This document shows, one piece after another, positions 3,418-30,689 of a stretch of 64,000 nucleotides of DNA. The translations under genes and the position numbers were made by a program. This DNA comes from Candidatus Aquilonibacter sp. (GTDB taxonomy: Bacteria; Verrucomicrobiota; Verrucomicrobiia; Limisphaerales; UBA11358): assembly GCA_035504945.1 (NCBI GenBank), contig DATJRH010000047.1:2157-66156 (forward strand), written 5' to 3'. The notes under the pieces are model-generated. The model had not been told where the DNA came from. It searched no databases and saw only the letters and a list, made by a program, of their open reading frames with translations. Position 1 is the first letter of the stretch, and each line of letters starts with the position of its first letter.

Positions 3418-3789
3418 TTATTTTTGTGGCGAGTCGCCAGCCGATATTTCCATAAATGATTTTTCGGCTGGCTTGGCTGGGGATGCTGGCTGTGTTCCGC
3501 TTGGCTTTGGGATGTCCTCGGCATTTGCGGATGGTTTGTTAATGGCTGTCAAACGACTTTCTGCTTCATTCACCGCTTGTTCAATGGGGTCTGTTTCTTC
3601 TTTCGTTAATTCCCTGCAAGTGGGTTTGTTATCTTTATTATTTTCCAATACGACAATCTGTTTTGGTTCAGCAATTCCGCCCGGACTGGTTTTAATCGCA
3701 TGATTCAATGTCCAGTAAGTTGCAAATATCCCTTCTGACAGATGCGGCAAGCGGTCTGACCAAAAACCATGTGTGTTCACACCTTTCAC
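3418..3789 (-). CDS. Hypothetical protein (AT-richer islet)
   Basis: 123-aa ORF with no recognisable motif; low-complexity Pro/Ala/Lys C-terminus. Confidence 0.35.
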   Translation of the reverse strand: MKGVNTHGFWSDRLPHLSEGIFATYWTLNHAIKTSPGGIAEPKQIVVLENNKDNKPTCRELTKEETDPIEQAVNEAESRLTAINKPSANAEDIPKPSGTQPASPAKPAEKSFMEISAGDSPQK

Positions 3790-3917
3790 ACTGATAGCCT
3801 GATTTAACCCGGCTTAGGGTTTATCGGTTTGAAACCGCTAAACCTCCGGCGGGTTCTGAAGGGGGACGCCCTGAAAAGCATTATTTTCTCAATTTTGACC
3901 AGACGATTTTCCTTTTA

Positions 3918-4430
3918 ATGCTCACTCGGCCAACAGAGGAGACAAAAGAATTTCGCGTGAAGTTGATATTGGCTTTCCGAGCCGCCCGCGAAAAATTGCG
4001 TCCAGTTGATACAATACTGCTGACGATTCCCGAAAAATGGCGAAAAACTTTCAAGGATGAATTTTACATTGCGCTTCTTAACATCTACGGCGAATCATTC
4101 GACGCATCAAAGAACAAACCAAGTTGGGTTGGCCATTGGACAAATCATTTTATTTACTCCCCGATTTATGACGGGCTTTCCCATGAACTAAAATCCAAGC
4201 GTGCCGCGCATTGCGATTTGACCGGCAAAGACCCGGACTTTATCCGATTGCATCAATTTTTAGAGGAGCACGCGAAAGACGAACTGAAAGAACAAATTGC
4301 GAAAACGACAGCCGTGCTTCAAATGTCCGGCTCAAAACATGATTTTGCCGAAAATTACAGAGCGGTTTTTCATGGAGTTTCTCAAATCAAATTTGACGAT
4401 TTATTGAAAGATGATTTCGGGAGCAATTAG
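3918..4430 (+). CDS. P63C-domain-like phage-derived protein (possibly N-terminally truncated)
   Basis: 170 aa. The pattern ...WRKTFKDEFYIALLNIYG...KNKPSWVGHWTNHFIYSPIYDGLSHELKSK...IRLHQFLEEHAKDELKEQI...MSGSKHDFAENYRAVF matches my recollection of the P63C domain (FPDEFY..RL.gw...krP..g..Tn.iVY..L.pgv.eEL...lHQ.Lt...G...L..hl). Confidence 0.5.
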   Translation: MLTRPTEETKEFRVKLILAFRAAREKLRPVDTILLTIPEKWRKTFKDEFYIALLNIYGESFDASKNKPSWVGHWTNHFIYSPIYDGLSHELKSKRAAHCDLTGKDPDFIRLHQFLEEHAKDELKEQIAKTTAVLQMSGSKHDFAENYRAVFHGVSQIKFDDLLKDDFGSN

Positions 4431-25552: not shown

Positions 25553-25806
25553 TGATGGCTTTCATAGCTCATAACTCAAACGAAAAAACTTGGGGGACAT
25601 TTCAGACATTTATCAATAAATGTCCGCAACCGGCTGTTGGAGACAATATTTTTATTCAAAAGCCGTTGGCGGAATTTAATTGAAGTGCCGGTGTGGCGTG
25701 CGTTCCCGCGAGCCGGATTGAAATCGTGGCGGCGGCTCGGCAGAGCGCCGCTAATTATTCGGAAGAAAATAATGCGGCTTTCTGCCGAAAGCCGCTACGC
25801 CGATTT

Positions 25807-26494
25807 TTATCCTATCACGCCGATGGTGGCCACGTCGCTCCACTGGCCGACTTGCGCATCATTGAGGCGATAGACGGCCTTGTATTTCCAGACCGCGCTT
25901 GGTGCCGGCTGCGGGCAGCGGCGAATTGTCCGCGTAATCGGTATTGGTCGTGAAGGTCAGCGGCACAAAGCCCTTGCCGTCGCCGCGGTCCACCTGCAAT
26001 TCCAGACTGTCCATGCCCTGCTTGGCCCAGCCGACGTGCGGATGAATGCCCGGCGGTGAGCGTGAGATAAAGCACCGGTTTCATGTTGGCCAGGTCAATG
26101 ATCACTTCCGGGCCGATGATGCCCAAATCCTGCGCGATGGCGTCGGTGCAGTTGGGATGGTTCTTGATGCGCACGGCCAAGGTGCTGGCGCGGCCAAAAT
26201 ATTCGGCGGCACGGTGGGCGGCGGCGTGCCGGGCGTGGGCGTCACCGGGATGTCGCTCAGATTGTCGCCGTGGGCGGCCTGATGCTTGTAAGCCGTCCAA
26301 TCGCGCGTCGTCTTGGTGTGCTGGCTGTGCGCATCGCAGACGTAATTGAAGAAAAGATTGTCGGCGGTCAACTGGGTGACTTCCGCCGGGGTGACGCCGA
26401 CGATGGCGGCGTAGGTGGGCATTTTGCCGGCGAAATTGTTGAGCCACGCGCGTTTGCCAGGCTCGTTTGTGGGTAAAAAATAGGCTTTTGGCAT
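25807..26494 (-). pseudogene. Frameshifted gene of unknown function with an Ig/FN3-like C-terminal domain
   Basis: Own translation needs three frame changes: MPKAYFLPTNEPGKRAWLNNF...TVPPNI | FGRASTLAVRIKNHPNCTDAIAQDLGIIGPEVIIDLANMKPVLYLTLTAG | IHPHVGWAKQGMDSLELQVDRGDGKGFVPLTFTTNTDYADNSPLPAAGTKR | AVWKYKAVYRLNDAQVGQWSDVATIGVIG*. The shifts sit in a T run, a G run and a CGCG repeat. Confidence 0.7.
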
Positions 26495-26540: not shown

Positions 26541-26945
26541 TTATGTTGTTTTCATGTGTTCTAGGAACGGATAAACAAGTTCCTGGAGCCGTCTAAAAGG
26601 TTCTCGGAACCGTTCCAGAAGTTCTTGGAGCCTTCCAAAAAGTTCTTGGGACGGATAAATAAGTTCTTGGAGGCGCTCAAAAAGTTCTTGAAACCTCTCC
26701 AAGAACTCTTGGAGCCGTTCAAGAAGTTCCTGGAACGGTTCAAAAAGTTGCTGGAACCGTTCCAAAAGTTCTTGGAAGTGTTCCAGAAGTTCTCGGAACC
26801 GCTTAAAAAGCTGCCGGAAACACCCGAAAAGCCCCTGCCGACCTTGCGCGGGTTGATTGGGAGGCGGCGGCATACCCCTGCAAACCGTGCAGTGCCGGGG
26901 CTGCGCCTCGATAAATTGGTTGAAAGGCGGCGCGAATCCGGCCAC
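26541..26945 (-). CDS. Possible heptad-repeat (ELLERFQ)n protein encoded across the 21-bp array (coding status uncertain)
   Basis: 134-aa ORF starting 20 nt after the XRE stop. Eleven ELLERFQ-like heptads have coiled-coil-like a/d hydrophobics but frequent Pro. Substitutions among units show no clear 3-nt periodicity by eye. Confidence 0.3.
   Translation of the reverse strand: MAGFAPPFNQFIEAQPRHCTVCRGMPPPPNQPAQGRQGLFGCFRQLFKRFRELLEHFQELLERFQQLFEPFQELLERLQEFLERFQELFERLQELIYPSQELFGRLQELLERFREPFRRLQELVYPFLEHMKTT
26558..26830. repeat. 13 contiguous 21-bp tandem repeats, consensus GTTCTTGGARCCGTTCCARAA, with two dyads per unit
   Basis: Units start at 26558, 26579, 26600 ... 26810 with no indels. 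Dyads are AGAA-G-TTCT at unit junctions and GGAAC-C-GTTCC mid-unit, about 10.5 bp apart. All six frames are open across the array. Confidence 0.95.
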
Positions 26946-26964
26946 AGGCCGGACGCCACAATTT

Positions 26965-27378
26965 TCAGGCCGGCGAAGCTGCTGGCGGGGCGGGCGATGC
27001 TTTTAGATTGCGCATGCATTTACGGTGAGCATCCAACCAAATTAATTCCCCGCGAACCATGCAAACATATTTGCACTCCCGGCAAGCTGCCGGCTGCCGG
27101 GCGAGCCATCGCTCCACCAGCGCATAGAACCGGCTTAATGACAGACCACACGCCCGGGCGACCCGCGCGATGATTTCCGGCGAGGGGACGCTTTGCTCCC
27201 TTTCCACCCGGCACAACATCTGCCGCGATACGTCTGCGCGTTTGGCGAGTTCGTTGGGCGACCACCCGCGCCGCTCGCGCAACCGGCGGAACATGCGCGG
27301 CAACGCCCGCGTGGTGGGCGACCTGTCCGTGAACATTTCATGTGTCGGCTCCCGAAGCCCTGCTTTCTGATTGTTCAT
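26965..27378 (-). CDS. XRE-family helix-turn-helix transcriptional regulator with Cys-rich C-terminus
   Basis: 137 aa, HTH WSPNELAKRADVSRQMLCRVEREQSVPSPEIIARVARACGLSLSRF; C-terminal CRECKYVC...HRKC. Confidence 0.75.
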   Translation of the reverse strand: MNNQKAGLREPTHEMFTDRSPTTRALPRMFRRLRERRGWSPNELAKRADVSRQMLCRVEREQSVPSPEIIARVARACGLSLSRFYALVERWLARQPAACRECKYVCMVRGELIWLDAHRKCMRNLKASPAPPAASPA

Positions 27379-27488
27379 CCAACCTGGTTTGTTCGGACCA
27401 ATAAAATAATTGTCCCTTCAAACTCAAGGTGAACATCTGATGGGCGGATGAAATAAAGCAGTCCGCCGCCGTTGTCAAAAGGAAAATG

Positions 27489-29117
27489 CTATTGCGCCTT
27501 TTCGACCACGAGCATTTTGACAGATCTCCTGGCAGGAACGAGTTCCAAACCAAGTTGATTCGCTAAGGCATCCTTCCAAGCCTGTTGCTCAACCTGTTGC
27601 TCAGGACCCTTGCCACTTTGCCAGGTGGGAATCTTAAAAAAAAAGTCAAACTGGTTCGTGAAGCCGGTCTCGTCAACCATCGGCACGGGGAAGGTGTTTT
27701 GGAGCCAAAGTTCCTTTACCAAATCGTCCATTGTAAAATAAAAATGCGCATCGCCCCTGCTGGCGCCATGCCAACGGTCGAAAGCACTCAGATTGGTTAT
27801 ATTCATGCTGCGCGCCAAACTGCCCGCCGGCTTGAGTGCGCCGATATCTTGGTTTGAAAGCCGGAGCGAGAGAACGTCTGTTTCCCGCGTTTCCCATTTC
27901 CCGACAATGCCGAACTGCTTCTCAATTAATTGCTGCAGCGGCAAGGCCGTGCCTTGAGGCAAATCGGAGACGTAATCATACAATGGTTTTTGAGGCAGTT
28001 TGGCGAGGAACACCATTTGCCAAGGCTGCGCGTCGTAGGCAATTCGCACGATATACTCAAGGGTGACGCCGAGGCCGATACTTTGCCAATGATTGGATGG
28101 GGGTTGAACGATTTCGTTGGTTTGAACGACGCTGCCATCCGGCATCCGCCTGACTACAGTTCGGAAGGAAGCAGTAGTGGCTGGCAATTGGGCGCCGATG
28201 AATTTTGGGTATATTGATTGTTTGATTCGAACTTGCGGCTCAGAATAATCGAATTCTATGTCGTCGTGTTGTGGATCATTAACCTTCGGGATTTCCCATG
28301 AGTCAGCCCTGTCCTCATTATGTTCTTTGTATTCTTTGACAGCGATTGTTGTTGTTCCCACTGCGAACAATACGACTGCACCTGTGATGACTGCTGTTTT
28401 CACTTTTGTCCATGCCATAATTTTCAATGCTCCTTTAATCAGGGTTAAGGTTGAAAGAGAAGCCGTCGCGCCCTTGGCAAATGCGGTGGCCGTCACGGCT
28501 TTGGCCAGCAGCACCGGCGCAGTTTGAACCGAGTTGGCGGAAATGGTTTCGCCCAGCGTCGCCGTCGTCGAAGTCACGCCGTGTTTGAAAAAGTATTTCC
28601 GCAATTTCTCCAAGGCCCGCGTGGCTCGTTTGTGCGCGGCCCATTCCTGAATGCCCAGCAGGGCGGCGGTTTCCGCGCCGCTCTTGTTTTCATAAAATCG
28701 CAGCGCCAGCAACGTCCGCTCCTTTTCATTCAGCCGCGACATCGCATCCTCCAGAATCGGGGCGAGCTGTCGCCAGATGTTTTCGGCGTTCGGATCGTTC
28801 AGGTTGGATTGCATATAAGCCTCCTGTTCGCGGGCTTGTTGTCTGGCCTTGTTCCGCAAATGCCGGATGCCAATGAAGCGGGTGGTTTCATACAACCAGC
28901 CGGTGAGCGTGGTTCTTTGGCGCAAACTCGCGGCCTTTTGGGCAAGGATGATGAAAACGGCCTGCGTCACGTCCTGCGCGTCCAGGGAATTGCCGGTGTA
29001 GCGCAGGGCGACGGAATAAACGAGGTTGATGTGCCGCTGAACCAATCCGGCAAAAGCCGTCTCCGAACCGCAGTCGGCATATTCCCGCAGCAAATCCATT
29101 TCGTTCAAATCGGGCAT
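27489..29117 (-). CDS. ECF-type sigma-70 factor fused to a TM helix and an extracytoplasmic TIGR03435-like domain
   Basis: 542 aa. Region 2 (LVQRHINLVYSVALRYTG...DVTQAVFI) and region 4 (LLALRFYENKSGAETAALLGI...). TM helix after KGALKIMAWTKVKTAVITGAVVLFAVG. C-terminus ...LANQLGLELVPARRSVKMLVVEKAQ. Confidence 0.8.
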   Translation of the reverse strand: MPDLNEMDLLREYADCGSETAFAGLVQRHINLVYSVALRYTGNSLDAQDVTQAVFIILAQKAASLRQRTTLTGWLYETTRFIGIRHLRNKARQQAREQEAYMQSNLNDPNAENIWRQLAPILEDAMSRLNEKERTLLALRFYENKSGAETAALLGIQEWAAHKRATRALEKLRKYFFKHGVTSTTATLGETISANSVQTAPVLLAKAVTATAFAKGATASLSTLTLIKGALKIMAWTKVKTAVITGAVVLFAVGTTTIAVKEYKEHNEDRADSWEIPKVNDPQHDDIEFDYSEPQVRIKQSIYPKFIGAQLPATTASFRTVVRRMPDGSVVQTNEIVQPPSNHWQSIGLGVTLEYIVRIAYDAQPWQMVFLAKLPQKPLYDYVSDLPQGTALPLQQLIEKQFGIVGKWETRETDVLSLRLSNQDIGALKPAGSLARSMNITNLSAFDRWHGASRGDAHFYFTMDDLVKELWLQNTFPVPMVDETGFTNQFDFFFKIPTWQSGKGPEQQVEQQAWKDALANQLGLELVPARRSVKMLVVEKAQ

Positions 29118-29168: not shown

Positions 29169-30689
29169 TTATTTCACTTTATCGACCACGAGCATTTGGA
29201 TGGGCAGGTTGGTGGGAACCAGTTCGAGGCCGTAGTTGTCGAACAAAGTTTTGTTCAATTCATCAAAATTCGGTGGTTTCGTTCCAGACGTTTCCCGTGG
29301 GATTTCAAAATCATAACGATTGGTCAACCCTGTCTCGTCTATGACTGGAACCGGAATTTGAAATTCATTTACTTCAAGGTTCCACACCAATTGCCCAATC
29401 GTCACTCCATCCAAGGACATTTCATCGCTGATAGCAGATGACTCCAATTCCGAGCTGCTTGGCCGCAAACCCGGTGAGTGGCTGTTTTTGACTTGAAGAA
29501 GCAAAACATTCGTCACCACCGTTACGACATTTCCAGTAACGCCAAATTTCGCTTTAATGGCGTCCTTGAAGGCTTGGGTGGCGCCCTTTGGCAGACTGTC
29601 AATAAAATCGTAACGCTCAGACGGCAGTTGAGTCGCAACAATTGTCCGGGCGTCGGTCCATGAGCCGTAGGCATCCCTCACCATCTGTTGGACGGAATAC
29701 GCCATTGCGAGTCTCTGCTCTTCATTCCCCGACCCGCTTCCCACCTCGGCACTCCCGCCGTTGGTGTTTACCGTAGGCCGAATTTCCATCAAGGGTGGCG
29801 CTTTTCGCAATACTTCGACGTTAACGCCGTTATCAAAATCCTGCCACCACTGAGGTCCGGAACTTTTTTCAATTTCCTTTACGGTGATGGTTGTTGTTCC
29901 CGCCGCGAGCAATACAATTGCCGTGGCAACAACCATTGTCTGCGCTTTTGTCCATGCCATAATTTTCAATGCTCCTTTGATGAGGGTTAGGGTGGAAAGG
30001 GAAGCCGTGGCGCCCTTGGCCAGCGCAACGGCAGTTGCAGTTTTTGCGAGCAGGGCCGGCGCAGCTTGAACCGAGTTGGCGGAAATGGTTTCGCCCAGCG
30101 TCGCCGCAGTGCAAGTCACGCCGCGTTTGAAAAAGTATTTCCGCAGCTTTTCCAAGGCGCGGCTAACGCGCATTTTCGCCGCATCCTCGCTCGCGCCCAG
30201 CGTTGCGCCGACTTCCGCAAAATTCAGGCCTTCAAAGAACCGCAGCACCAGGGCGTCGTGATCTTTCTGGCCGAGCTTTTCCATAGCCGCATCCAGCAAC
30301 GGTGCGATTTGGTTCCAGGTTTCCGCTTGAACTTGCGGCGACGGGGCGTCGCCGTCACCAGTCAAAATGTTTTGCATGTGCGCCTCCTGTTCGCGGCGCT
30401 GCCGCCGCCTTTGAATGGTCAGCGCATTGGCACTGGCGTATCGCGCCGTGCGGCAAAGCCAGCCGGGCAGAATAGTTTTGTCGCCGAGCGAACCGGCCTT
30501 GCGCGCCAGAATGATGAACACAGCCTGGGTGATTTCCTCGGCCAGATGCGGGTCGCGCACCTGTCGCAGGGCGACGGAATAAACGAGGGCGACGTGCCGT
30601 GTGACGAGCGTGGTGAACGCTTCCTCGGAATTGCGCCGGGCATATTCGCGCAGCAGGCTCAAGTCGTCATTCATGATTTTCACAGACAT
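29169..30689 (-). CDS. Paralogous ECF sigma-TM-TIGR03435-like fusion
   Basis: 506 aa with the same architecture. Shares the identical segment KGATASLSTLTLIKGALKIMAWTK with its neighbour. C-terminus ...NYGLELVPTNLPIQMLVVDKVK. Confidence 0.8.
   Translation of the reverse strand: MSVKIMNDDLSLLREYARRNSEEAFTTLVTRHVALVYSVALRQVRDPHLAEEITQAVFIILARKAGSLGDKTILPGWLCRTARYASANALTIQRRRQRREQEAHMQNILTGDGDAPSPQVQAETWNQIAPLLDAAMEKLGQKDHDALVLRFFEGLNFAEVGATLGASEDAAKMRVSRALEKLRKYFFKRGVTCTAATLGETISANSVQAAPALLAKTATAVALAKGATASLSTLTLIKGALKIMAWTKAQTMVVATAIVLLAAGTTTITVKEIEKSSGPQWWQDFDNGVNVEVLRKAPPLMEIRPTVNTNGGSAEVGSGSGNEEQRLAMAYSVQQMVRDAYGSWTDARTIVATQLPSERYDFIDSLPKGATQAFKDAIKAKFGVTGNVVTVVTNVLLLQVKNSHSPGLRPSSSELESSAISDEMSLDGVTIGQLVWNLEVNEFQIPVPVIDETGLTNRYDFEIPRETSGTKPPNFDELNKTLFDNYGLELVPTNLPIQMLVVDKVK

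Follow-up and report, generated by a model that had tools for sequence, protein, structure and literature searches.

The tandem array of 21-bp units at 26558-26830 on the minus strand of the window (the whole 64,000-nt stretch of DNA that was analysed) lies within a maintained open reading frame, frame B (26561-27019, minus strand), is conserved at related loci and is linked to p227, a downstream gene whose intact product has 227 aa. With moderate confidence, we read the array as the repeat-coding body of a small protein translated in frame B. One 21-bp unit would then give one heptad, about [S/K]-N-F-[W/L]-N-G-S, and translation would begin at an ATG within the last 18 codons of the upstream XRE gene or, in one sub-clade, 36 nt past the XRE stop. 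From there the frame would cross a variable pre-array segment and would end exactly with the array, 47-90 nt before the start of p227. The B protein would be fast-evolving, its length would shift by whole units (21 or 42 nt) so that the frame is kept, and XRE, B and p227 would be co-transcribed.

TRF and manual register showed that the array consists of 13 units of 21 bp, indel-free and in register at 26558-26830, as a previous reading of the sequence alone (hereafter the sequence-only reading) had described; in frame-B codon register it runs from 26833 down to 26561. The unit consensus derived here, GTTCTTGGAACCGTTCAAAAA, is near the one given in that reading. Of the periods that TRF reported (21, 42 and 84 bp), the one of 84 bp had the top score (249), in agreement with the higher-order period that had been suspected before. 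No second copy of the 21-bp unit was found elsewhere in the 64 kb, with 0 matches expected by chance, and Rfam and tRNA scans of the window gave no match. The window has a G+C content of 55% and matches ENA metagenome contig ERZ27256528 k141_560042. The earlier reading had also assigned two dyads to each unit, and this was true only in part: inverted repeats are present in the array, imperfect and 71-88% complementary, but the symmetry of the unit consensus was 14/21 (P about 0.15-0.2), which alone is not beyond chance, and exact dyads were not conserved in relatives. The RNA of the window array folded much better than shuffled sequence (z = -6.0).

A genome scan with the XRE protein detected one Verrucomicrobiae MAG (L003), in which the XRE protein was 77% identical, the layout was the same and the downstream 227-aa gene was intact. 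Scanning metagenomes with p227 yielded 26 loci from peat and bog, of which 20 carry XRE, a gap of 338-653 nt and p227, and the gap in those 20 loci showed 21/42/63-nt autocorrelation. These 20 loci with an array in the XRE-p227 gap were fetched, and 15 lineages were analysed in detail. The recurrence of this layout shows that the array is old and conserved, even though the XRE orthologues share just 40-80% identity. Thus, the array is genuine, not the recent slippage artefact, absent from relatives, that the sequence-only reading had allowed for.

That reading had described the array as open in all six frames, but only three are open over it in the window, namely minus-strand A and B and plus-strand C; the frame in phase with XRE carries 5 stops and the other two plus-strand frames carry 3 each. 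Minus-strand frames were named relative to the XRE frame, A being +1 and B being +2 (= -1), and C is antisense and has its second codon position in common with A. ORF A (26541-26945, minus strand; 134 aa, GTG start, ELLERFQ heptads), which the earlier reading had listed, is indeed in the ORF list. ORF B (26561-27019, minus strand; 152 aa) is found both in the ORF list and in the gene call of the source assembly, and ORF C (26625-27173, plus strand; 182 aa, TTG start, KKFLEPF heptads) runs antisense to A, B and XRE. A and C are also open in the window because the unit is partly self-complementary, and neither is maintained in relatives. Expected stop numbers were obtained by permuting each of the 21 columns among the units within a lineage and were summed over the 15 lineages. 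By this null, frame B had 0 in-array stops against 20.7 expected, while frame A had 22 against 27.6, frame C had 11 against 17.7, and the remaining three frames had 51, 50 and 83 against 59, 55 and 73, respectively. Five frames were near expectation, so the null is well calibrated and B alone is protected. That a coding reading is possible, as the sequence-only reading had allowed, was upheld, but the protected frame (NFWNGSK) is one that it mentioned only in passing.

Frame B was stop-free from its ATG to the last unit in every one of the 15 lineages, and it terminated at the array end, typically with ...FSR or ...SAN before the stop codon. In the window, the ATG lies within the 3' end of XRE (55-nt overlap, -1 frame relative to XRE) and is followed by about 60 aa of non-repeat sequence, 13 heptads of the [S/K]-N-F-[W/L]-N-G-S type and a stop at the array end. 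The ATG was located 54-63 nt upstream of the XRE stop in 17 loci (M[HQ]APSKS), where it is built from the last base of a K/Q codon and the TG of a conserved XRE Cys codon; the clade with the ATG 36 nt past the XRE stop comprises L011, L026 and L014. Between the close relatives L013 and L012, length differences of 42 nt in the array and 9 nt in the pre-array segment leave frame B preserved. It also stays open through REP-like inserts of at least two types, one in L003, L016 and L022 and another in L030; the database relatives with similar inserts were ascertained as called ORFs. Heptad position 2 is almost always Asn, encoded by AAY only, and independent gene callers picked frame B as well. We infer that the frame-B ORF is translated. 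A fusion of XRE and B by -1 frameshifting was rejected, as stops interrupt frame B between XRE and the ATG of B in the clade of L011, L026 and L014, and B has its own ATG in all lineages. Frame C was likewise rejected as a gene, given its lineage-specific stops in L021, L017 and L013, its start, which is not conserved, and its antisense overlap of about 200 nt with XRE.

The substitution pattern fits a frame-B protein less well. Variability across the family has a clear 3-nt period, so the earlier statement that substitutions lack such a period held within the window alone (permutation P = 0.5) and not for the family. The least variable phase is B position 1 (position 2 of A and C), which is unusual for a coding frame: within-array entropy at B positions 1, 2 and 3 was 59, 107 and 110 bits, and differences between six independent orthologue pairs fell on 65, 122 and 107 sites (P = 1.4e-4). 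NG86 dN/dS of frame B ranged from 0.4 to 1.9 and was near 1 in several pairs. In the clade of the window, frame-B amino-acid differences were fewer than expected if the same substitutions were placed at random (z = -2.9 to -3.4), and in the GC-richer clade frame A appeared more constrained than B by both dN/dS and the placement test, so these two tests gave weak and clade-dependent answers. Divergence of the array region was 0.37-1.0 times the dS of p227.

Codon usage of frame B was not host-like, with a log-odds of -0.03 bits/codon versus 0.36 +/- 0.15 for host genes, and A, B and C were alike midway between real genes and off-frames, so that codon usage does not separate the three. AF2 modelling of the B product gave low-confidence helices at pLDDT 49 with no confident fold. 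Searches of Pfam and PHROGs with the A, B and C products returned only sub-threshold coiled-coil or low-complexity matches; the B product matched PF21300 weakly (E = 3e-4, 21.2 bits), below the gathering cut-off of 30 bits. An HMM search over 1.84 billion representatives gave only a handful of true B relatives, all beginning with MHAP[SA]K, and its other matches were unrelated minisatellite ORFs. A literature search found nothing relevant. The earlier view that the array falls outside any described class was thus upheld, since no described family matched.

On the minus strand, the gene order is two sigma-70/DUF3738 fusion genes, a terminator-like hairpin at 27457-27470, XRE, the array, the gene starting at 26494, a terminator-like hairpin at 25774-25795, ndk and mnmA. 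The two fusion genes (27489-29117 and 29169-30689, minus strand), directly upstream of XRE, are tandem paralogues that combine an ECF-type sigma-70 (regions 2 and 4), a transmembrane segment and DUF3738. The gene at 25807-26494 (minus strand) is a p227 homologue with an N-terminal helical domain and a C-terminal FN3-like domain, as recognised from three-frame translation and from intact orthologues. It is intact, with 227 aa, in about 25 related loci, and the window copy is broken by three frameshifts, which makes it either a pseudogene or an assembly error. The p227 family comprises 253 proteins, apparently all from Verrucomicrobia-type contigs, and its dN/dS was 0.07-0.43. The AF2 model (pLDDT 90) showed a helical domain and an FN3-like sandwich, and Foldseek with this model gave generic FN3 matches only; a role of p227 as an iteron-binding Rep or Par-type protein was rejected on the basis of this predicted fold. 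Downstream of p227 there is a terminator-like hairpin with a T-run (25765-25795 including the T-run, minus strand), and this hairpin and that at 27457-27470 flank the putative XRE-B-p227 unit. Because the genes share a strand, no terminator lies between them and hairpins flank them, XRE, B and p227 are most likely transcribed together. The B product may work with p227. An ORF of 60-73 aa between the array and p227 (L003 6886-7068, L030 3474-3695, also L026, L010 and L019) is similar to p227 residues 1-45 (MPKAPF...RLPxYAAQLG), as if the 5' end of p227 had been partly duplicated, and L024 (1-1673) has a frameshifted p227 with neither XRE nor a periodic array upstream.

Distant p227 loci (40-65% identity; L028 and L031-L038) have no XRE, and in these loci a 21/42-nt periodic array is located directly upstream of p227. 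The array therefore travels with p227 and not with XRE. The array ORF of the XRE-less clades is A/S/T-rich, with the heptad S-A-T-[IV]-x-A-x, and its N-terminus is signal-peptide-like or hydrophobic in L032 (3627-3995; VKAKPILFIVGVLLAAAQVASA), L031 (about 3525-3840) and L037 (1829-2302). The ORF stops 2-5 nt upstream of p227 in L032, L034 and L035, and in L032 the third codon position is the least variable. The profile register of the distant arrays was not that of frame B, although the mapping was weak (0.377 versus 0.33-0.36 for the alternatives), so the array appears to be read in a different frame in these clades.

This apparent change of register counts against a frame-B protein and, together with the presence of a periodic array just upstream of p227 even where XRE is missing, favours the main rival, to which we assign a minor but appreciable probability: that the periodic nucleic acid itself is selected, with a phased ARYT core and a weak dyad every 21 nt and with strong folding, as a cis element for p227 expression. 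The ORF would then be open only for the passage of ribosomes, for example for coupling or for avoiding polarity between the upstream gene and p227, and the peptide would be incidental. The family unit profile was R N S A R Y T N N Y (not-A) N R R N S N Y Y N N, with the ARYT core. Position-frequency matrices showed a weak reflection symmetry about one common axis in 12 of the 15 lineages, and the arrays folded better than shuffles on both strands (z = -1.3 to -6.5 across lineages), neither of which is predicted by a protein-only model. The phase under constraint keeps its place on the DNA and does not coincide with position 2 of the frame that is translated, and the dN/dS values near 1 and the array divergence relative to p227 dS also point this way. 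However, p227, with its helical and FN3 domains, is not a known DNA binder, and XRE is dispensable and varies independently of the array. The shared axis could be due to descent of the arrays from a common ancestor, the exact dyads are not conserved, the register assignment in the distant clades is as weak as stated above, and a 3-nt period of constraint has no known mechanism at the level of nucleic acid.

The pre-array part of ORF B holds two further palindromes, both on the minus strand and both conserved in relatives with 7-bp stems. The hairpin TCCGGCC-TGT-GGCCGGA (26937-26953) lies just past the XRE stop, and in L021 and L017 both sides of its stem changed (C-G to A-U) with the pairing kept; the second (26895-26911) reads TCGAGGC-ACA-GCCTCGA in relatives and is imperfect in the window. 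These hairpins may serve as operators for XRE, represent an RNA element or be what is left of a REP-like sequence. REP/MITE-like palindromic elements of at least three types were observed between the XRE stop and the array in L003 (6440-6520), L016, L022, L030 (P0002), P0123 and P0174, and L015 has such an element after the array (3840-3970). A REP-associated tyrosine transposase (Y1_Tnp) follows p227 in L003, L030, L007 and L009. L003 also carries a second, truncated XRE paralogue (218-478; 86 aa, without the Cys-rich tail), and after this paralogue comes a further tandem array (522-732; GCGATGTCGCAAAACG...), of 21/63-nt period and unrelated in sequence, whose motif is similar to the REP-like element close to the main array.

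A further reading takes what is conserved to be a frame-agnostic 21-nt periodic element upstream of p227, with the ARYT core, a constraint that returns every 3 nt, a weak dyad per 10.5 bp and frames that differ by clade. The product would be an A/S/T-rich secreted peptide in the XRE-less clades and the N/F/G/S-rich frame B below XRE, and the repeat design would tolerate frame switches or serve as a cis element and an ORF together. We consider this unlikely. It is quite unlikely, too, that the window cassette is a decaying relic whose array is currently functionless. The three frameshifts in the window p227, which is intact in relatives, mean that this copy of the cassette may be decaying, and codon usage is atypical in all frames; but frame B is intact over 152 codons, the window array is as regular as the arrays of relatives, and the p227 frameshifts could be assembly errors.

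The sequence-only reading had preferred a non-coding iteron, centromere or operator array, possibly bound by the adjacent XRE protein, and we now regard such an array as very unlikely. The XRE gene itself is real (26965-27378, minus strand; 137 aa, Cys-rich C-terminus, Pfam HTH_31 4.4e-13 and HTH_3 3.4e-12), as that reading had held. Gene callers of public assemblies took the repeat ORF and skipped the XRE gene, with which it shares about 55-60 nt, in the contig of the window and in L030. An HTH regulator directly upstream, repeats of two helical turns and the dyads GGAAC-N-GTTCC and AGAA-N-TTCT in the window unit all speak for such an array, and 13 direct repeats of 21 bp in phase are what is expected of iterons (several direct repeats of 17-22 bp). 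But iterons are non-coding and have an adjacent Rep gene in a plasmid context, whereas this array lies inside a conserved ORF that is open in 15/15 lineages, its family-wide variability has a 3-nt period, and the neighbours are XRE and the helical and FN3 protein. No Rep or Par gene was found among the neighbours of the array, the contig context is chromosomal (mnmA, ndk, gltB and der), and plasmid and phage similarity searches of the region, the places that the sequence-only reading had named, gave no match. Dyad symmetry of the unit consensus was at chance in 12 of the 15 lineages, beside the weak common-axis symmetry of the position-frequency matrices.

Binding by XRE would require sites that co-vary with XRE and depend on it, and neither was found. 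The XRE proteins (L003-L030) fall into about five allele types that are 38-58% identical between types and have the Cys-rich C-terminus in common, and XRE identity did not correlate with the similarity of the array units (Spearman 0.07, P = 0.49). L014 and L016 have one array type and XREs that are 46% identical, and L006 and L016 have XREs that are 80% identical and array types that differ. This shuffling of XRE types relative to the array type and to the highly conserved p227 suggests recombination within the cassette. The lack of co-variation, the arrays upstream of p227 in loci without XRE and the lack of a plasmid or phage signal together leave the operator or iteron reading unsupported.

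Frame A, which the sequence-only reading had considered as the coding frame, is hardly credible as the gene for a coiled-coil protein, because in relatives it collects in-array stops at nearly the chance number, with 5-6 within one array in the L021 and L017 lineages, and in most lineages has no start codon upstream of the array. Its a/d-like hydrophobic spacing, the fit of the substitution counts to its codon positions (2 < 1 < 3), the Q/E-L pair kept through synonymous codons in the GC-rich clade and the most conservative replacements of the frames (BLOSUM z = +1.3) speak for it, but its stops (TAA/TAG at the heptad Q position) are synonymous TTC to TTT changes in frame B. Reading of TAA/TAG as Gln was rejected, as XRE ends in TAG on those same contigs. 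The sole database match of frame A, P0001, is a perfect ERLQELL repeat on a eukaryote-like contig (Ras, Pkinase, MRP-L28), a minisatellite ORF that we regard as unrelated.

Compared with known systems, a frame-B protein resembles small, minisatellite-encoded heptad tandem-repeat proteins such as the Asn-ladder beta-roll of the Lolium ice-binding type (PF21300, xxNxVxG) in that one 21-bp unit gives one heptad, with an Asn that does not vary and, four residues on, often a Gly, and in that copy number changes by whole units. It differs from them in its atypical codon-phase conservation, in its score below the PF21300 cut-off, in having bulky F/W/L where the beta-roll has Val/Thr and in AF2 helices of low confidence in place of a beta-roll, and a shared origin is not indicated. 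Iteron arrays of theta plasmids and centromere arrays of the parC/parS type share the direct repeats of about 21-22 bp, the helical phase and the adjoining gene for a DNA-binding protein; the array here differs in lying inside a maintained ORF on a chromosome, without Rep or Par, and in neither co-varying with the adjacent regulator nor disappearing with it. Rickettsia palindromic elements are palindromic repeats inserted in frame into ORFs. The REP-like elements that several relatives have in the pre-array portion of ORF B are like them in leaving the frame open, while the 21-bp array differs in not being dispersed, as it occurs once per locus and always upstream of p227. Most likely, the array is an undescribed example of a tandem-repeat ORF, which is itself a known kind.

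For annotation, the array shows that a partly self-complementary 21-bp repeat leaves several frames open, and that the most protein-like of them, the amphipathic ELLERFQ frame, is not the one that evolution keeps open; at the same time gene callers kept the repeat ORF at the expense of the real XRE gene. Should frame B be translated, it would represent an undescribed family of small heptad-repeat proteins tied to an uncharacterised, well-conserved helical and FN3 protein with more than 250 relatives, and the XRE regulator under which this pair often stands has alleles that are shuffled among loci. The constraint that recurs every 3 nt and a possible switch of frame from clade to clade would, if confirmed, be of interest in their own right.
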